NCBI GenBank assembly: GCA_964492885.1
Contig: CAZBMI010000001.1
Location: 1-28,113 of the forward strand
Length of the DNA stretch: 28,113 bases
Direction of reading: 5' to 3'
From: an uncultured Planctomycetia bacterium
Lineage (GTDB): Bacteria > Omnitrophota > Gorgyraeia > JABMRG01
The notes beneath the pieces were generated by a model. It saw only the letters and a program-made list of their open reading frames with translations. It had not been told where the DNA came from and made no database searches. Position 1 is the stretch's first letter; the number at the start of each line of letters is the position of its first letter. The position numbers and the translations under genes are program-made. Below are positions 13,857 through 27,959 of this stretch, one piece after another.

Positions 13857-14156
13857 TTATTCTACATGTGTTATTCGTACTCCCTCCGGCAATTGGCTGT
13901 TAAGCCGCTCTTTAACAGCAAGAGGGTTTACGTTCTCATCAAGGACAAACTCCATCTCTTCTTTATCGGATTCGATGCCCAGTTTTAATGCCTTATTTAT
14001 TCTTACGACAGGCCTGGGCCTGAACCCCTTGGTCAGGTAAAACTTAAGGCCTGTCCTTCGCAATGCCCTGTTAAAAAGCCTTAAAAGATCCAGATGCGAG
14101 ATATAGCGCATCCATCCGTTTTTACTGAATATAACATGATATAATATTTTCATCAT
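13857..14156 (-). CDS. DUF2344 / radical SAM-linked family protein, short form
   Basis: FSKNGWMRYISHLDLLRLFNRALRR..L.FY..KGFRPRP...ALKLGIES..E matches this family from memory. It sits upstream of rng, a common context. Confidence 0.8.
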   Translation of the reverse strand: MMKILYHVIFSKNGWMRYISHLDLLRLFNRALRRTGLKFYLTKGFRPRPVVRINKALKLGIESDKEEMEFVLDENVNPLAVKERLNSQLPEGVRITHVE

Positions 14157-21247: not shown

Positions 21248-21676
21248 TTATGTTATGGGCAGATTATTAGTAAGGTCCATAACCACGCCTGTTTCGTCAA
21301 CACTAAAAACTCTCGTTCCTGTAGTACCGGGTCTCACAGGAGCAGCTGTACAGGTAAAGGTGTCCGCGCTCAGGTTTGATATGACAAAGGTATATCCCTG
21401 TTTTGTGCCTGAAGCCAGATTGGAGTCTATAAAAGGCGGGTTTGATACAGGCATGGACATCTGTGCCAGGGTTCCGTAGGTATTGGGAGTCTGCGATGTC
21501 CTGAATGACTCCTCTGCCGTGCTTATCGTTCTTAAGGAGGCTATGGCAGCTGCTTCATTGGCATTGTGTTTTGCCCTGAGCAGATTGGGTATTGCTACAG
21601 CTGCAAGCAATGCTATAATAGCAACTGTAATCATAACCTCAATAAGCGTAAAGCCCCTTTTTTCGCTCTTGATCAT
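21248..21676 (-). CDS. Type IV pilin paralogue 2
   Basis: EKRG|FTLIEVMITVAIIALLAAVAIPNL; closely similar to 21784-22215. SD AGGGAG upstream. Confidence 0.92.
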   Translation of the reverse strand: MIKSEKRGFTLIEVMITVAIIALLAAVAIPNLLRAKHNANEAAAIASLRTISTAEESFRTSQTPNTYGTLAQMSMPVSNPPFIDSNLASGTKQGYTFVISNLSADTFTCTAAPVRPGTTGTRVFSVDETGVVMDLTNNLPIT

Positions 21677-21783: not shown

Positions 21784-22215
21784 TTACTCTATAGGCCTGT
21801 TGTTTGTTACATCCCATACCACGCCTGTCTGGTCAACGGTAAATGTCCTTGTTCCTGTCTGGCCCGCGACCTGCGGACTAGCTGTTACCGTATAAGTGTT
21901 CGGGCTAAGGTTACTCATTACAAAATTGTAACCCTGCTTTGCTCCTCCTGCCAATATCTGGTCGATATATGCAGGTCCGCCGTTCGGCGGAGCAAGAAGA
22001 TTAGCAAGGGTACCGTATGTAACAGGATTCTGGTTTGCGCGGTATGACTCCTCTGCAGAGCTTATTGTCCTTAAACTGCCTATTGCAGCGGACTCATTGG
22101 CATTGTGCCTTGCCCTTAAGAGGTTAGGTATGGCTATAGCGGCCAATAATGCTATGATAGCGACAACAATCATCATTTCAACAAGAGTAAAGCCCTTATT
22201 TCCTTTTATCTTCAT
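21784..22215 (-). CDS. pilA: Type IV pilin, probable major pilin
   Basis: GNKG|FTLVEMMIVVAIIALLAAIAIPNL. Having its own promoter and terminator suggests a separately and highly expressed subunit. Confidence 0.88.
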   Translation of the reverse strand: MKIKGNKGFTLVEMMIVVAIIALLAAIAIPNLLRARHNANESAAIGSLRTISSAEESYRANQNPVTYGTLANLLAPPNGGPAYIDQILAGGAKQGYNFVMSNLSPNTYTVTASPQVAGQTGTRTFTVDQTGVVWDVTNNRPIE

Positions 22216-22422: not shown

Positions 22423-23628
22423 TTAGCTTACAATTTCGGTTATCTTAAATATAGGCATAAATATCGCAAGAACAATACCCCCTACAACCACGCCAAGAAA
22501 CAGTATAATGATCGGCTCCATAAGGCTCGTAAGGCTTGCCACAGCCGCGTCAACCTGTTCATCATAAAAATCTGCTATTTTGCTCAACATCTTCTCAAGC
22601 TCGCCGGACTGTTCGCCCACGGATATCATCCTGACAACCATAGGAGGAAATACCGGTGCCTTGGATAAAGGCTCCGCGAGGTTCTTGCCTTCTCTTACGG
22701 CATCCTTTGCCTTATTAACGGCAATCTCGTCAATCCTGTTGCCGGAGGTCTTTGCGACAATATCAAGGCTTGTCAATATGGGCACTCCGCTCTTTACCAG
22801 GGTTGAAAATGTCCTTGAGAACTTGGCGACACTTACCTTTTTTATAATAACTCCAAAAACAGGTAATTTTATGGCAATGTTGTCAAACATAAATTTTCCT
22901 CTTTCAGTCTTTGCGTAACGTACCAGGATAACCGCAAACACCGTAAAACCGATAAGACCGTAAAAAAACCAGTTGCGTACAAAATTACTAACCATAAGAA
23001 GTATCTGGGTAGGAAGGGGGAGGTCACCTCCAAGCATATCGAATATTCCTTTAAAAGTAGGCACTACCTTTACAAGAAGAAATATTGTAATGGCTATTGC
23101 TATTGTGATTACGGCAATAGGGTATATCATGGCAGATTTTACTTTGCGCTGTAATGAGGCGGTCTTTTCCATATATACCGATACCCTGTTTAATATCTCG
23201 TCAAGCATTCCGCTTGATTCGCCTGCCTTTACCATATTTATGTATAATACGGAAAATATACGCGGGTGCTTTGAAAGGGCCTGGGAAAAACTGGAACCTG
23301 TCTCAACATCATCGCGCAGTTTCTTTATGACCTGCCCGAAACCCTTATTATCGGTCTGCTGGCTTAATACATCGAGCACGTTTACAAGCGGTATGCCTGC
23401 CTCTACCATCGTGGAAAGCTGCCTTGAAAATATAACCAGGTCATCGAGCTTGACCTTTTTAGCGACAGGGGCGCCCTTCTGCTGAGGGGCTGTATCTTCC
23501 CGCACAGATATAATGGTAAAATCCTGTTTTCTTAAAAGCTCTATAAGGTTCTCCCTGTTCTTGGCATCAGCGCTTCCGTTTACTGTCTTGCCTGCCGGGC
23601 TTTTTACGGTATACTGAAAATGCGGCAT
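22423..23628 (-). CDS. pilC: Type IV pilus inner-membrane platform protein (GspF/PilC family)
   Basis: FSRQLSTMVEAGIPL, NMVKAGESSGML, FSRTFSTLVKSGVPIL, VGEQSGELEKML, and EPIIILFLG. SD CAGGAG upstream. Confidence 0.96.
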   Translation of the reverse strand: MPHFQYTVKSPAGKTVNGSADAKNRENLIELLRKQDFTIISVREDTAPQQKGAPVAKKVKLDDLVIFSRQLSTMVEAGIPLVNVLDVLSQQTDNKGFGQVIKKLRDDVETGSSFSQALSKHPRIFSVLYINMVKAGESSGMLDEILNRVSVYMEKTASLQRKVKSAMIYPIAVITIAIAITIFLLVKVVPTFKGIFDMLGGDLPLPTQILLMVSNFVRNWFFYGLIGFTVFAVILVRYAKTERGKFMFDNIAIKLPVFGVIIKKVSVAKFSRTFSTLVKSGVPILTSLDIVAKTSGNRIDEIAVNKAKDAVREGKNLAEPLSKAPVFPPMVVRMISVGEQSGELEKMLSKIADFYDEQVDAAVASLTSLMEPIIILFLGVVVGGIVLAIFMPIFKITEIVS

Positions 23629-23663
23629 GTTCTGCTCCTGTGTTATTTGATATTATTCATGCA

Positions 23664-23705
23664 AAGCTGTAAGCTGTAAGCTGTAAGTTTTAAGCTTTAA
23701 GCTTT
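23664..23705 (+). repeat. Heptamer tandem array, left (6 units)
   Basis: AAGCTGT x3, AAGTTTT, AAGCTTT x2. It contains the last codons and stop of the four-helix-bundle gene. Confidence 0.92.
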
Positions 23706-24046
23706 TTTTGAAATCCTGACAACATACATCCAATTTCATCAGTTAATATTGATAACTGTTGGTAATGTTTCTTGTCTATATATTTTAAATCATAAGCCAA
23801 AAGTAAATGATATTTTGTCTCCTCTAAAGAGCTGTCAGCCACATTGAGAAAATGCGCAAAATCTTTATCGCTTCTTCTTTTATAACCTTCAACGATATTG
23901 GTAGCTATAGAAGAAGCGGACCTTCTTAATTGTGTTATTAAACCATATTTTTCGGTAGCAGGAAATATTTTAGTAAATTTGTATATTTCCAAAACCAATT
24001 CATGGGCTTTTTGCCAAGCTTTTATATTCTTGAATGTATATGACAT
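23690..24046 (-). CDS. Four-helix-bundle protein (23S rRNA IVS protein / Avd-like fold family)
   Basis: AWQKAHELVLEIYKFT..FP..EKYGLITQLRRSASSIATNIVEG...F.HFL..A..SL.ET. Hand count gives 108 G+C in 360 nt (30%) over 23701-24060. Confidence 0.92.
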   Translation of the reverse strand: MSYTFKNIKAWQKAHELVLEIYKFTKIFPATEKYGLITQLRRSASSIATNIVEGYKRRSDKDFAHFLNVADSSLEETKYHLLLAYDLKYIDKKHYQQLSILTDEIGCMLSGFQKKLKA

Positions 24047-24055
24047 TTGATTTTT

Positions 24056-24090
24056 GCTTATAGCTTACGGCTTACAGCTTAAAGCTTATT
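24056..24090 (-). repeat. Heptamer tandem array, right (5 units), inverted relative to the left array
   Basis: Plus strand GCTTATA GCTTACG GCTTACA GCTTAAA GCTTATT. It contains the pilB stop codon (24086-24088). Confidence 0.92.
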
Positions 24091-25804
24091 CCTCGGTCGT
24101 TATCCTCAATACCTCTTCAATGGTAGTTAATCCCGAAAGCGCTTTTTGAAAGGCATTGTCCCTTAAAGTCTTCATACCGTGGGAAACGGCATACTCTTTT
24201 ATATCATCCGAAGACTTGCCTTTTACCACCATCTCCCTTATTGTATCATCTATTAGCAATATTTCAAGTGTTCCCATTCTTCCGCGGTAACCTGTATTAT
24301 TGCATTTGCTGCATCCTGTACCGTGGTAAAATACAGCGTTCTTTGGCGGGTTTATATTAAGACGCTTTAAAACCGACGGTGTAACTTCACAAGGCTCTTT
24401 ACAGCCTTCGCATATCTTTCTGCAGAGCCTCTGCGCGGCAACAGCTACAAGGCTTGATGTTACAAGAAAAGGTTCGACCCCCATATCGATAAGGCGTGTT
24501 ATCGCTCCGCAGGCATCATTGGTATGAAGAGTGCTTAATAATAACTGGCCTGTAAGAGATGCTTTGATGGCTATATCAGCTGTCTCAAAATCTCTTATCT
24601 CTCCGATAAGCACTATATCGGGCGTCTGGCGCAGTATAGAACGTAACCCCGCTGAAAAGGTAAACTTTATATCGGGGTTTACCTGTATCTGGGTTATTCC
24701 TTCGACCTGGTATTCAACAGGGTCTTCTATGGTGACTATATTCTTCTCCGGGGTATTAAGCTGTGTTATTATAGAATAGAGCGTTGTCGACTTTCCGCTT
24801 CCTGTAGGGCCTGTTACAAGTATCATGCCATACGGTTTGTTTATTGCCTCTTCAAATAGCTTGAGGGGTTCAGGCAGGTAGCCTAACTTATCCAGGCCTA
24901 TGCTGAGGCTTGTCTTATCAAGCGCCCTCATAACTACTTTACTTCCATGGCTTGTAGGAAGTATGGATACCCTGAAGTCAACTTCCTTATCACGCATCCG
25001 TATCCGAAAACGCCCGTCCTGCGGTACGCGCCATTCGGTAATATCCATTCCCGACATTATCTTTATGCGGGTAAGGACGGCGTTTTGGTCCTTTTTTGGC
25101 AAAGAAAAGGCCTTGCGCAGTGTCCCGTCTACCCTGTATCTTACACGAAGGCTTTTCTCCTGAGGCTCGACATGAATATCAGACGCGCGGCTCTCAAGCG
25201 CTTCTGTTATCATCAGGTTCACTACTTTTACTATAGGCGCTACTTTGCTCTGTTTTGTAATCTCCGCGACATCAACTATATCTTCGTTTTCAGCAGCCGT
25301 AAGCTCCATTGAATCGCTCTCTCCGGCCTCTTTGACTTCTTTGAGTATCTGGGCAAGCTGTGTAGACTCCGCCCCGTAATAGTTGTTTATGGCGCCTGAT
25401 ATCTCCTTATCCGTGCTTATTACAGGGTCTATCTTGTAATGAGTCAGTATCTTAATATCGTCTATGGCAAATATATTTAATGGGTCCGCCATACAGAGGG
25501 TCAGGTTATCACCCATCCTCGATACGGGAATCACCTTATACTGCTTTGCTATTCTTTCGGGTATGAGTTTTACGACTTGAGGGTCCACTGAAAAACGGGA
25601 CAGATTGAGTATGGGCAGGTTTAAGCTCGAGCTTAAAAGAAGCGCTAAGTCTTTCTCCTTTATAAAACCTTCTTTAAGCAGTATATTACCGAGGTTGCCT
25701 CCTTCGGCCTTCTGTATCTCTATGGCCTTGTTAAGCTGTTCTTTTGTTATGAGCTTGCTGTTCTCCAAGGCATCGAGCAGTTTCTTTTTAAGTGAAGTTA
25801 CCAT
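24086..25804 (-). CDS. pilB: GspE/PilB-family pilus assembly ATPase, copy 2
   Basis: ASDIHVEP, VPQDGR, Walker A GPTGSGKST, TIEDPVE, LRQTPDIVLIGEIRD, STLHTND, and CEGC...CSKC. Confidence 0.93.
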   Translation of the reverse strand: MVTSLKKKLLDALENSKLITKEQLNKAIEIQKAEGGNLGNILLKEGFIKEKDLALLLSSSLNLPILNLSRFSVDPQVVKLIPERIAKQYKVIPVSRMGDNLTLCMADPLNIFAIDDIKILTHYKIDPVISTDKEISGAINNYYGAESTQLAQILKEVKEAGESDSMELTAAENEDIVDVAEITKQSKVAPIVKVVNLMITEALESRASDIHVEPQEKSLRVRYRVDGTLRKAFSLPKKDQNAVLTRIKIMSGMDITEWRVPQDGRFRIRMRDKEVDFRVSILPTSHGSKVVMRALDKTSLSIGLDKLGYLPEPLKLFEEAINKPYGMILVTGPTGSGKSTTLYSIITQLNTPEKNIVTIEDPVEYQVEGITQIQVNPDIKFTFSAGLRSILRQTPDIVLIGEIRDFETADIAIKASLTGQLLLSTLHTNDACGAITRLIDMGVEPFLVTSSLVAVAAQRLCRKICEGCKEPCEVTPSVLKRLNINPPKNAVFYHGTGCSKCNNTGYRGRMGTLEILLIDDTIREMVVKGKSSDDIKEYAVSHGMKTLRDNAFQKALSGLTTIEEVLRITTEE

Positions 25805-27520
25805 TTAAGTTTCCTGGTCACCTGCGGTTACCCTGACTATTTCTTCAATACTGGTCAGACCTTTTGCGGCTTTCAATATGCCGTCTTCGCGTAATGTTAC
25901 CATGCCGGAGTTTTTTGCCTGCTCCTTAAGCCGGGCCTCTGTGGAGTTATCCATTATAAGCCGCTTTATCTCTGGGTCTAAAGAGAGAGCCTCCATTAAT
26001 CCTATTCTTCCTTTATACCCTGTCCCAAGGCAGAACTTACAGCCTCTGCCTTTGTAAAAAGTCTTGATTGAATTATCCTTTACTCCTATACTCTTTCGCA
26101 GTCCGTCATCTATCGGATAAGGTTCTTTGCATTTATCACATATCTTTCTTACAAGCCTCTGGGCAATAATCATCACAACAGAAGAACTGATTAAAAAGGG
26201 CTCAAGCCCCATGTTGACCATTCGCGTTATAGCTCCTGTGGCGGTATTGGTGTGTATTGTACTTAATACCAGGTGCCCTGTAAGCGCCGCCTTTACCGTG
26301 ATATCCAGAGTATCAAAATCGCGGATTTCACCAACCATTATTATATCGGGGTCCTGTCTCAAAATTGAACGCAAAACAGACGCGAAGGTAAGGCCTATAT
26401 CAGGTTTTACGTTAACCTGGTTTATTCCTTTTAAGTCAAACTCTATGGGGTCTTCCACTGTCACTATATTCTTCTCAGGGTCGTCTATATGATGCAATAT
26501 GGAATACAGCGTTGTTGTCTTGCCGCTTCCTGTGGGGCCGCAGGCAAGTATCATTCCATGAGGCCTTAAAGAATTTGATTTGAGAACATTCAGAGACGTA
26601 TCTGAAAATCCGAGTTTTTCGACATCAAGCGTTGCGTTCGCCTGGTCAAGCACCCTTATGCCCGCTTTCTCTCCCGAGCTTGAAGGAAGTATGGATATCC
26701 TGAAATCTACAGACCTGTTCTTTATCTTCAGTTTGAACCTGCCGTCCTGCGGAAGGCGCCTTTCAGCTATATTGAGTTCTGACATGACCTTTATTCTGGA
26801 TATCACAGCCTCGTGAAGTGTCTTTGGCAGGACGCGGGCAATTTGGAGCATGCCGTCTATGCGGAACCTTACCCTTGTCTCGTTCTCCATGGGTTCAATA
26901 AGAATATCGCTCGCCTTAAGTTTTACAGCCTCAGATAATATCATGTTGGTAGCCTTTACAATAGGCATTTCCTGAGTAAGCTTGACAAGGTCTTCGGCTT
27001 TCAGGTCATCTAAATCCTGCGTTGTAACAAGCAGATCGGGCTCTTCCATGTCTTTTACGACATCCTCTATCTGGTTATGGGTATGTTTCCCGTAATGCTC
27101 TTCAATAGCCGCGTCTATAGAGTTACTGTCAGTAAGCACAAGCCGGACATCAAATCCTGTGAGAGATTTTATGTCATCTATGGCAAATATATTTAAAGGG
27201 TCCGCGACAGCGATAGTTATGGTGGGCCCCATCTTGGAGAGGGGGAGTATGTGGTAGTGGCGGGCTATCTCCCTGGGTATCATCTCGATAACCGCAGGGT
27301 CAGCATTATATTTAGCTAAATTTATAAGGGGGATATTAAGGTCCTGGCTTAAGGTTATAAGCAGGTCCTTCTGCTTAACAAGCCCTAAGTCAATCAGTAT
27401 CTGGCTTAGTTTGCCGCCTTTTTCTTTCTGAAAAAGCAAAGCCTTATCTAACTGGTCCTGGCTTATTATATTGCTTTCTAAAAGCTTTTTAGTTATTCTA
27501 TCCTTTAGAGACAGAACCAT
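25805..27520 (-). CDS. pilB: GspE/PilB-family pilus assembly ATPase, copy 1
   Basis: ASDILIEP, RRLPQDGR, Walker A GPTGSGKTT, TVEDPIE, LRQDPDIIMVGEIRD, STIHTNT, and CDKC...CKFC. Confidence 0.93.
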   Translation of the reverse strand: MVLSLKDRITKKLLESNIISQDQLDKALLFQKEKGGKLSQILIDLGLVKQKDLLITLSQDLNIPLINLAKYNADPAVIEMIPREIARHYHILPLSKMGPTITIAVADPLNIFAIDDIKSLTGFDVRLVLTDSNSIDAAIEEHYGKHTHNQIEDVVKDMEEPDLLVTTQDLDDLKAEDLVKLTQEMPIVKATNMILSEAVKLKASDILIEPMENETRVRFRIDGMLQIARVLPKTLHEAVISRIKVMSELNIAERRLPQDGRFKLKIKNRSVDFRISILPSSSGEKAGIRVLDQANATLDVEKLGFSDTSLNVLKSNSLRPHGMILACGPTGSGKTTTLYSILHHIDDPEKNIVTVEDPIEFDLKGINQVNVKPDIGLTFASVLRSILRQDPDIIMVGEIRDFDTLDITVKAALTGHLVLSTIHTNTATGAITRMVNMGLEPFLISSSVVMIIAQRLVRKICDKCKEPYPIDDGLRKSIGVKDNSIKTFYKGRGCKFCLGTGYKGRIGLMEALSLDPEIKRLIMDNSTEARLKEQAKNSGMVTLREDGILKAAKGLTSIEEIVRVTAGDQET

Positions 27521-27959
27521 AGTAGCGTTTTATCGATTCTTTGATATCGGTTTGAGTACTTACAAAGACCTGAACCTTACAGTTTGTGATAAGCTCGACA
27601 TCCTCTATGGCATGCGTATTAAGCGGGTCAGACATCGCGACAGTAAGTGAATTTCCGATCTTATCAATGGCTATGAGGTTATACTGGCTGGATACGTTTT
27701 CAGGTATAAGCTTTACTATATTGATGTCAACTTCATAATTGGTAAGGGGTAAATACGGGTAGCCGAATTGCGTGGTAAGAGACTGCGCTATCTGCTCTTC
27801 TGTGGCAAATCCCAGGAGAACAAGTATGCCCCCTAAAAGGCCCCCTTTCTCCTTCTGGAGGGCAAGTGCCTTCTGAAGCTGGCGCTGGCTTATCACCTTC
27901 TTATCAACAAGCAGTTCTCCGAGTTGTTTTGATATAAGTCTTTTTGGCGGCGTTATCAT
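27498..27959 (-). CDS. Stand-alone MshEN / T2SSE_N domain protein (no ATPase domain)
   Basis: QLGELLVDKKVISQRQLQKALALQ followed by LLGGILVLLGFATEEQIAQSLTTQ, the tandem MshEN motif, then IPENV...Y.LIAI...VAMSDPLN. Confidence 0.88.
   Translation of the reverse strand: MITPPKRLISKQLGELLVDKKVISQRQLQKALALQKEKGGLLGGILVLLGFATEEQIAQSLTTQFGYPYLPLTNYEVDINIVKLIPENVSSQYNLIAIDKIGNSLTVAMSDPLNTHAIEDVELITNCKVQVFVSTQTDIKESIKRYYGSVSKG

Follow-up and report, generated by a model that had tools for sequence, protein, structure and literature searches.

A four-helix-bundle gene between inverted heptamer arrays at a pilB-pilC junction, probably a member of a widespread class of cassettes akin to rRNA intervening sequences

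Why should a gene for a small four-helix-bundle (4HB) protein stand between pilB and pilC in a type IV pilus operon, and why should it be enclosed by two arrays of one heptamer in opposite orientation? This question is raised by the unit at 23664-24088 of contig CAZBMI010000001.1 (assembly GCA_964492885.1), whose positions 1-28,113 are called the window here. We consider it probable that this unit is a cassette of the intervening-sequence (IVS) type known from rRNA, which is placed in an mRNA operon and represents one copy of a widespread class made of a PF05635 gene plus arrays. The class itself is recognisable, undescribed and related to the rRNA IVSs, with a 4HB gene located between two arrays of a lineage-specific unit that is usually 7 nt long and usually inverted. 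In the window the cassette stands in sense, exactly at the stop codon of pilB2, and the pilC leader follows it. This build is general in the sampled family, the unit co-varies with the protein, and the orthologous junction is empty or differently occupied in relatives.

All genes of the pilB2-cassette-pilC region are encoded on the minus strand, and upstream and downstream are read accordingly (Table 1). Exactly two period-7 arrays were detected in the 28,113-base window by Tandem Repeats Finder (TRF), and both flank the 4HB ORF, with the 3′ array called at 23664-23703 as 5.7 copies of AAGCTGT. A repeat search of 23550-24200 recovered the arms 23664-23695 and 24056-24087, 32 nt each, as an inverted repeat with 28/32 positions complementary (88%), and the three-unit pattern TAAGCTNTAAGCTNTAAGC (≤2 mismatches) has seven matches, all within the two arms, against 0.01 expected by chance. 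The arrays also reach into the coding sequences, as the 5′ array opens with the TAA that serves as pilB2 stop codon (24086-24088), and the 3′ array contains the final six codons of the 4HB ORF together with its stop (QKKLKA plus stop, 23690-23707) and runs on past the ORF end on the coding strand as ...ACTTACA GCTTACA GCTTACA GCTT. The GC content of the cassette is 0.30 vs 0.40-0.49 in the surroundings. No Shine-Dalgarno sequence of the GGAG type was found ahead of the 4HB ATG (TAAGCAAAAATCAA-ATG), whereas pilC has AGGAG; the TAAGCTN array of 4.7 copies stops 9 nt short of the 4HB ATG, and a short A-rich spacer before the ATG is also seen in the TAAGCTN subfamily. The pilC leader reads ...ACACAGGAGCAGAAC-ATG in the window and ...ACCAGGAGCAGAAG-ATG in locus L085 when the junctions are compared. 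A preliminary description of this DNA had claimed the low GC of the 4HB gene between pilB and pilC, its missing Shine-Dalgarno sequence, the opposite arrays matching at 28 of 32 positions, and the coding of the pilB stop and of the last cassette residues and stop within the arrays, and all of this, coordinates included, was confirmed. No match to Rfam was obtained in 23500-24250 and none to the known defence families of PADLOC; no terminator-like site lies within the cassette, and its promoter-like matches are consensus matches only.

Table 1. Features of the pilB2-cassette-pilC region of the window, listed mainly in the direction of transcription.
Feature	Position	Strand	Description
pilB2, T2SSE ATPase with MshEN domain	24086-25804	-	upstream of cassette; Pfam T2SSE E=3e-136
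5′ arm	24056-24088	-	TAAGCTT TAAGCTG TAAGCCG TAAGCTA TAAGC; TRF period 7, 4.7 copies (GCTTACA on plus strand)
Spacer between 5′ arm and ATG	24047-24055	-	9 nt, A-rich, AAAAATCAA; direct sequence reading
4HB ORF, 118 aa	23690-24046	-	PF05635/TIGR02436, 23S rRNA IVS protein/S23p, Avd-like fold
3′ arm	23664-23707	-	reverse-complement unit: AAAAAGCTT AAAGCTT AAAACTT ACAGCTT ACAGCTT ACAGCTT
pilC leader, retained	23629-23663	-	Shine-Dalgarno AGGAG at 23635-23639; homologous to leader of ORF-less relatives
pilC, T2SSF platform protein	22423-23628	-	downstream of cassette; Pfam T2SSF E=3e-69

The encoded protein belongs to PF05635 (E=3.6e-39, 133.7 bits vs a cut-off of 33.8) and TIGR02436 (E=3.1e-38, 130.4 bits vs a cut-off of 24), and it also matches PF22296 (bAvd) with E=2e-12, with a score of 48.8 bits against the Avd equivalog NF033474 that lies below the cut-off of 80. 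An AlphaFold2 monomer model (pLDDT 93.4) places four helices at 9-25, 36-56, 60-86 and 92-117, and Foldseek aligned it with XCC0516 (2GSC; TM 0.91, rmsd 1.5), BT_0352 (2RLD; TM 0.76-0.83), and bAvd (4DWL) and chains of the ribonucleoprotein (RNP) of a diversity-generating retroelement (DGR), the last two at TM ~0.78. The protein is basic (pI 9.4). Residues R42, S46, N50, E53 and G54 are invariant in an alignment of 33 sequences, so the RxxxSxxxNxxE motif is present, and the leading G of the published family motif GxxRxxxSxxxNxxE (PMC3936711) is Q39 in the clade of the window protein. The PDB entries 2GSC, 2RLD and 4DWL hold five chains each, and the depositors of XCC0516 speak of five four-helix bundles, a pentamer (PMC3936711 ref. 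48); the window protein is probably a pentamer as well. The dN/dS of ~0.10 among relatives of 118 aa indicates that the 4HB protein is kept by purifying selection. No recognisable catalytic domain is encoded in the cassette.

Is this arrangement peculiar to the window? A total of 80 metagenome loci encoding homologues at 41-81% identity was sampled, giving 76 family genes, and 313 further ORFs of these loci served as controls in a comparison of the 100-nt flanks. The median score for inverted repeats between the two flanks was 16.5 in the family (n=76) vs 7.0 in the controls (n=313; p=4e-30), and 64/76 family genes lie above the 95th percentile of the controls, so the arrays that the preliminary description expected around other family members are indeed there. 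Seven was the best tandem period in the upstream flank of 55/76 family genes vs 45/313 controls, and in the downstream flank of 60/76 family genes, with some members having units of 8, 9, 10 or 11 nt. Of the 48 cases with an equal period on both sides, 36 had one and the same unit (≤1 mismatch) in the two arrays, inverted with respect to each other. The arms usually hold ~2-6 units and are occasionally expanded to 8-15. The GC content of the ORF was lower than that of its surroundings in 60/60 loci (0.37 vs 0.48), and a Shine-Dalgarno sequence was found for 25/76 family genes vs 19/75 crude control starts, a comparison that is uninformative, as the start codons of these controls are uncertain. 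Around one 4HB gene of L076/L078 (2826-3862), degenerate arrays of GGTCGAG, GAGAGTC and GGACTCT extend over ~125, 100 and 300 nt, showing that arrays can grow far past the usual 3-6 units.

The repeat unit follows the protein. Every homologue at 66-81% identity has TAAGCTN or TAAGTTN as its unit, and these homologues occur in metagenome-assembled genomes (MAGs) labelled Omnitrophota, Schekmanbacteria and Elusimicrobia, while the other homologues carry AAGTGGT, AAGTGCTAC, AAGACNC, GAGTCTNNC, GTCCAGN, CAGACNN, TGAGCTN, CGAGGGN and others. Protein distance and unit distance are correlated (Mantel r=0.65, 0/2000 permutations), also outside the main clade (r=0.30, 0/2000 permutations), and two paralogues on one contig each have their own unit (L001, L043, L053 and L078). 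The tracking of protein phylogeny by the heptamer, one of the earlier suggestions, thus stood up, as did variation in unit number, which ranges from ~3 to 15 units between loci and is seen between Coxiella strains too (PMC4990558). A general rule of TAA in all three frames was discarded; it is true of TAAGCTN, but most other units have no stop. In IMG/VR, four relatives were found in 2.9 million viral contigs, all with similar array arms; phages are not the main vehicle. Near-consensus sequences resembling TTGACA-N17-TATAAT were noticed ~20-60 nt past the 3′ array in L003, L006, L017 and L021 of the TAAGCTN subfamily, at apparently orthologous sites.

The cassettes are placed in operons in a regular manner. 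Both neighbours are co-directional with the 4HB gene (+,+) in 41/51 cases and both opposite (-,-) in none, and the operons concerned are unrelated to one another (pilus, acc, ilv, cas and rRNA). The 5′ array begins at a median of 1 nt past the upstream stop codon, in agreement with the idea of insertion at stop codons already put forward for this locus, and it overlaps the upstream gene in 12/32 cases; from its end to the start codon the median distance is 18 nt, and the 3′ array sets in a median of 5 nt before the ORF is over.

What does the same junction look like in relatives? The orthologues of PilB2, with 82-85% identity, are encoded in the same operon, and the pilB-pilC junctions differ. 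The junction is empty in L087, with 5 nt (AGAAG); it has 50 nt with a solo degenerate array (TATCTTT...) in L088/L089 and a 96-nt ORF-less hairpin of inverted GTATTGC-type heptamers in L085/L086, and in L083/L084 a GTATTGC unit is followed by unidentified sequence at which two assemblies break. In every occupied junction of these close relatives the array begins directly at the pilB stop. Arrays or hairpins of yet other units occupy the pilB-pilC junction in L091, L093 and L114, independent 4HB cassettes occupy it in L095 (TTTCGCA) and L153 (a 10-mer unit), and in L093 a TAAGYTG hairpin lies beside a GTATTGC array remnant. Empty sites, which the preliminary description had proposed to look for, are therefore provided by the 5-nt junction of L087 and by 33/73 Omnitrophota species whose pilB-pilC gap is 0-7 nt, a spacing consistent with tight coupling. 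As separate observations at this junction, ~90 nt (…CCCCTAGCTTAAACAGGTCGGGGTTTCGGCCGAAGGCTGATTAGCC…) follow the GTATTGC array at the pilB stop in L083 (4720-4834) and L084 (3023-3137), and the ending of two independent assemblies at the same base suggests another repeated element there; a conserved gene of ~1.07-1.1 kb stands between pilB and pilC in ~25 of the loci L090-L169 (e.g., L128, L139 and L160), which is a distinct operon layout of other Omnitrophota and not a cassette. A Y1_Tnp gene (PF01797, IS200/RAYT-like) directly follows pilC in the Ca. Orphnella occulta relative (L088/L089, 6034-6708), and an IS200/IS605 tnpA lies 1.1 kb from the 4HB gene of Nostoc pCC7120alpha (L174, 2976-3345); these transposase neighbours may be a coincidence, or they may be a lead to a mobilising enzyme.

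ORF-less versions of the arrays were also observed. Across all loci, inverted pairs of the same unit have spacers of either 12-80 nt, as ORF-less hairpins, or ~320-530 nt with the 4HB gene inside, and arrays of the same unit also occupy neighbouring junctions of cassette-bearing operons, either singly or as ORF-less hairpins. In L032 (516-3371) the order is ilvD, array, ilvB, array, ilvN, array, 4HB gene, array, with the GATTAAG unit in alternating orientation, so that the host genes too are bracketed by pairable arrays. Three DNA runs contain the window sequence as assembled contigs in Logan; in the source metagenome, words of the 3′ array have a depth of 17-35 vs ~5.5 in the flanks (3-6 times), suggesting that the same array is present elsewhere in the community. 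Other contigs of this metagenome hold the two arms ~36 nt apart and ORF-less, although they are not assignable to the window genome. Joints that seem to skip part of the cassette belong to other loci with short spacers and are no deletions at the window locus.

The nearest known counterpart is the 23S rRNA IVS of Leptospira, Coxiella burnetii and others, which shares with the window cassette the PF05635 family, an ORF in the loop of a long stem formed by terminal inverted repeats, and a poor or absent Shine-Dalgarno sequence. In Coxiella the IVS has a 28-bp terminal stem that is cut by RNase III, a poor S23p Shine-Dalgarno sequence, and tandem GACAGAT heptamers of strain-specific copy number just before the S23p start (PMC4990558), as the window cassette has heptamers ahead of its start codon. 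However, the window cassette lies in an mRNA operon (pilB-pilC) and not in helix 25 or 45 of rRNA, its arms are recognisable as arrays on both sides, and its ORF is under purifying selection (dN/dS ~0.1), unlike the Coxiella IVS ORF, which is reported to be decaying.

A second counterpart consists of the dispersed heptamer arrays of cultured bacteria. In Xanthomonas campestris 186 GGGAATC arrays have been described, 70 of them in convergent pairs, and GGGGAYT arrays in Nostoc (PMC4692102), while TAACTGA repeats are known from Beggiatoaceae, Cyanobacteria and Bacteroidetes (PMC4679880); the Calothrix heptanucleotides are cited in PMC4692102 and belong among the cyanobacterial repeats. G-quadruplexes or binding by S1, Csp or CsrA have been suggested for such arrays, with no connection to PF05635 (PMC4692102, PMC4679880), and these papers identify neither a protein that binds the arrays nor a way in which they spread, although the author of the TAACTGA study considered that a repeat-binding protein might itself be a mobile element (PMC4679880). 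Like the arms in the window, these arrays are tandem 7-nt units in 2-6 or more copies, located intergenically and near ORF ends inside operons, often in convergent pairs and with lengths that vary among relatives. Mazel is said to have reported the cyanobacterial heptanucleotide repeats in 1990, under the name STRR. Many copies of one unit across a genome are seen in Xanthomonas (186 arrays), and the window itself holds the two arms only; the arrays of the window type are paired around a PF05635 gene and their unit follows the protein phylogeny, unlike the arrays published so far. A full-text search found no literature linking PF05635 genes to flanking or dispersed heptamer arrays, the Coxiella IVS description aside.

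The two counterparts meet in Xanthomonas. XCC0516 was the first structure solved in the family. In both X. campestris and X. citri its orthologues stand between accB and accC, all in one direction, with GGGAATC GGGAGTG GAGAATC GGGAATC in the upstream flank of XCC0516 and CCCATTC CCCATTC TCGACTC CCTATTC (ATTCCCN arrays) in the downstream flank. The supplement of PMC4692102 lists, without comment, repeat #15 as "6 nt after bccP, overlapping the start of XCC0516", so this flanking array is one of the 186 of X. campestris. Plasmid-borne copies of similar build, each with a different unit, were found in Nostoc punctiforme, Trichormus variabilis, Calothrix, Stanieria, Anabaena 90 and Azospirillum, the unit of N. 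punctiforme being TCAGGAG, and Pseudanabaena has direct arrays of up to 15 units. Two cyanobacterial plasmids have a 4HB cassette between cas6 and cas4 (L178, 380-2544; L179, 301-2549), the order in Anabaena 90 being cas6-4HB-cas4. The 23S_rRNA_IVP gene has been reported as CRISPR-associated (PMC3936711, PMC10910872), and cassettes of this kind probably account for that label through insertion into cas operons and not through a Cas function. Downstream of accC in X. campestris (L170, 4358-4827) a 97-nt unit is repeated 4.9 times with 90% matches, and it is unrelated to the heptamers.

More distant likenesses help to delimit the class. The REP/BIME elements with their RAYT and the MITEs are short palindromic extragenic repeats that stand at gene ends inside operons, have many non-coding and few coding copies and could affect mRNA processing. 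The cassette shares with them the terminal inverted repeats and ORF-less versions; however, its arms are tandem 7-nt arrays and not a unique palindrome, its gene encodes a small helical protein without a known catalytic motif, and no target-site duplication was seen. Part of this comparison follows the introduction of PMC4692102. TRAP is an 11-mer that reads (G/U)AG triplet repeats in the trp leader. It has no homology to the window 4HB protein and is named as an analogy only, for a homo-oligomeric ring that could read tandem short repeats with a conserved core and variable bases. An integron cassette was considered and dropped, as there is no integrase and repeats stand on both sides instead of a single attC.

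How would such a cassette work? It would have arrived by insertion at the pilB-pilC junction, and its relatives would have spread within and between genomes, leaving behind ORF-less arrays and hairpins that relate to the complete form as MITEs do to a full transposon. In the pilB-pilC transcript the arms may form an imperfect stem of ~32 bp whose loop contains the ORF, as the preliminary description had proposed. This part of the proposal is consistent with the predicted fold, in which the arms pair with each other in both the minimum free energy and the centroid structure (z=-4.8); what calls for revision is a pure stem, since the variable position is not compensatory and some arrays are direct or solo. 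By analogy to the rRNA IVSs, RNase III would cut such a stem, and this would part the pilB section of the transcript from the pilC section and set the 4HB mRNA free. The basic 4HB protein would in turn bind its own unit in tandem copies, each made of ~6 constant nucleotides and one variable position, and as its own 5′ arm sits where a Shine-Dalgarno sequence would be, binding there would give self-control; the protein could also act on arrays of the same unit elsewhere. The 4HB protein probably recognises its own arrays, and this is favoured by the lineage-specific units, the different units of paralogues, the unit built of a core plus a variable base, and the precedent of Avd, for which binding to one specific RNA element of the DGR ribonucleoprotein is described (bioRxiv 10.1101/2023.10.23.563531).

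Going further, we tentatively suggest, at a little short of even confidence, that the dispersed heptamer arrays (GGGAATC, GGGGAYT, TAACTGA and STRR) have PF05635 proteins as their cognate, sequence-specific partners and perhaps also as their spreader. The two would then form a protein-and-repeat element class that colonises operon junctions across many phyla, with the rRNA IVSs as a special case and the CRISPR-associated genes as a by-product.

Several observations weigh against these readings. The variable unit position is pairable between the arms in 41/72 cases vs 0.62 in shuffled arrangements, in a test that is weak and depends on the register, so the stem possibly has a mismatch every 7 nt and is without covariation support. 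Arrays are direct rather than inverted in L011, L022, L076/78 and L178, and solo arrays are common; together with the non-compensatory stem and the ORF-less copies, these points count against a pure stem model and make the repeats look like recognition sites themselves. A purely selfish model is in turn counted against by old and stable sites, as the accB-accC insertion is vertically inherited across Xanthomonas and further sites are shared by L010/L016/L018 and by L012/L026/L027, so that a domesticated function fits as well as a selfish one. The GC content of the cassettes follows that of the host (r=0.81), a point against frequent transfer in recent times. Between filled and empty junctions no target-site duplication can be seen, in relatives that are 82-85% identical and whose junction has turned over; since no nuclease, transposase or reverse transcriptase was found either, mobile is meant here on the strength of presence and absence patterns only. 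The work on Coxiella suggests that S23p is untranslated and reports its ORF as decaying (PMC4990558), and the 80 metagenome loci represent one branch of a very large family.

Among the alternatives, the one that survives best, though we hold it to be unlikely, is a domesticated regulator with a regulon, in which the arrays are cis binding sites on mRNA or DNA, the 4HB protein regulates its own synthesis and nothing is mobile. It agrees with the accB-accC position kept in all Xanthomonas sampled and the other shared sites, with the strong purifying selection on the protein, with the same-unit arrays at successive junctions of ilvD, ilvB and ilvN in L032, and with the translational regulation that MacGregor proposed for TAACTGA repeats. 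A fixed regulatory site is nevertheless difficult to reconcile with the pilB-pilC junction, where close relatives have at least five unrelated units or no insert at all, a pattern of turnover and not of conserved regulation, or with the L093 hairpin of one unit nested by the remnant of another. The lower GC of the cassette in 60/60 loci, the proteins that are 66-81% identical in MAGs labelled as different phyla, and the spread over unrelated operons (pilus, acc, ilv, cas and rRNA) count against it as well.

It is more doubtful still that the 4HB gene is cargo or an accessory in a non-autonomous transposon, whose arrays would be the terminal repeats for an enzyme encoded elsewhere (e.g., Y1/HUH or IS200/RAYT). 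The cassette itself encodes no enzyme, ORF-less hairpins of inverted arrays are common, as with MITEs and REP/BIME, and transposase genes stand after pilC in L088/L089, whose junction has a solo array, and 1.1 kb from the Nostoc pCC7120alpha copy. These two neighbours are anecdotal, however, and the pilB-pilC junction shows no target-site duplication. A shared host enzyme moreover predicts one unit per genome, whereas paralogues on one contig differ and each matches its own protein, and the strict sense orientation (41 vs 0) is unexpected for DNA transposition alone.

That the gene is the Avd gene of a DGR, with the repeats as parts of a template and variable region, is very improbable and effectively refuted at the window locus. 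DGR Avd, a pentamer that binds RNA and a partner enzyme, is like the window protein a positively charged four-helix bundle (TM 0.78 to 4DWL and to the DGR RNP chains), and the PF22296 match (E=2e-12) fits as well; however, the sequence identity is ~13%, the NF033474 score of 48.8 stays under the cut-off of 80, the neighbours are pilB and pilC, and the repeats are tandem 7-nt units and not a template/variable pair of ~100 nt, a pair for which no dedicated search was made. Of the 26 window ORFs, the 23 scanned against Pfam, the cassette included, gave no match to a transposase or a reverse transcriptase, in agreement with the preliminary description.

Chance can be dismissed: in many bacteria no long simple-sequence repeat is commoner than the heptamer, for which an origin by slippage has been proposed (Mrazek 2007, as quoted in PMC4679880), and heptamers born by slippage in AT-rich intergenic DNA could happen to flank the gene, but the seven pattern matches vs 0.01 expected in the window, the control ORFs of the same loci without such flanks, the arms sharing one inverted unit in 36/48 cases and the co-variation of unit and protein refute it.

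If the cassette reading is right, three old loose ends, namely the IVS ORF, the 4HB protein family and the heptamer repeats, may be one phenomenon. ORF-bearing 23S rRNA IVSs were described in 1993, and the purpose of the ORF has been unexplained since; genes annotated as four helix bundle protein are very numerous, with two crystal structures, a link to Avd and no function assigned. The cassette class links this large PF05635 family to the unexplained intergenic heptamer repeats of bacteria. Reading of its own arrays by the protein would be testable at the bench in Xanthomonas campestris, where XCC0516 lies inside one of the 186 GGGAATC arrays and 242 genes have such an array beside them, and it would explain the presence of 4HB genes inside cas, acc, ilv, pilus and rRNA operons, the assembly breaks at such sites, and how small elements reshape operon transcripts. 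In the window, the tight pilB-pilC coupling of relatives is interrupted by a structured insert of 425 nt, with a probably modest consequence for the pilus operon itself.

The remainder of the window is a long minus-strand type IV pilus cluster comprising an MshEN-only ORF, pilB1, pilB2, pilC, pilins, pilM/O and secretin, and beyond it housekeeping genes for RNase G, H+-PPase, MnmA, a MarR regulator, RND efflux, TilS and FtsH. It holds 26 non-overlapping ORFs of ≥70 aa, and the three outside the Pfam scan, pilB1 (25805-27520) and the pilin-like ORFs 21248-21676 and 21784-22215, are recognisable from their translations. The MshEN-only ORF has 153 aa and stands ahead of the two tandem PilB/T2SSE paralogues of 571 and 572 aa (24086-27959); the order of this ORF and the two pilBs is kept in relatives, with a GGDEF/GAF/HAMP protein upstream, and the MshEN and GGDEF context hints at c-di-GMP control of the pilus system. 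Beside the RNase E/G gene, an ORF of 99 aa (13857-14156) aligns with no more than the first half of DUF2344, namely positions 3-95 of a profile of 176, and is possibly a truncated or split gene.

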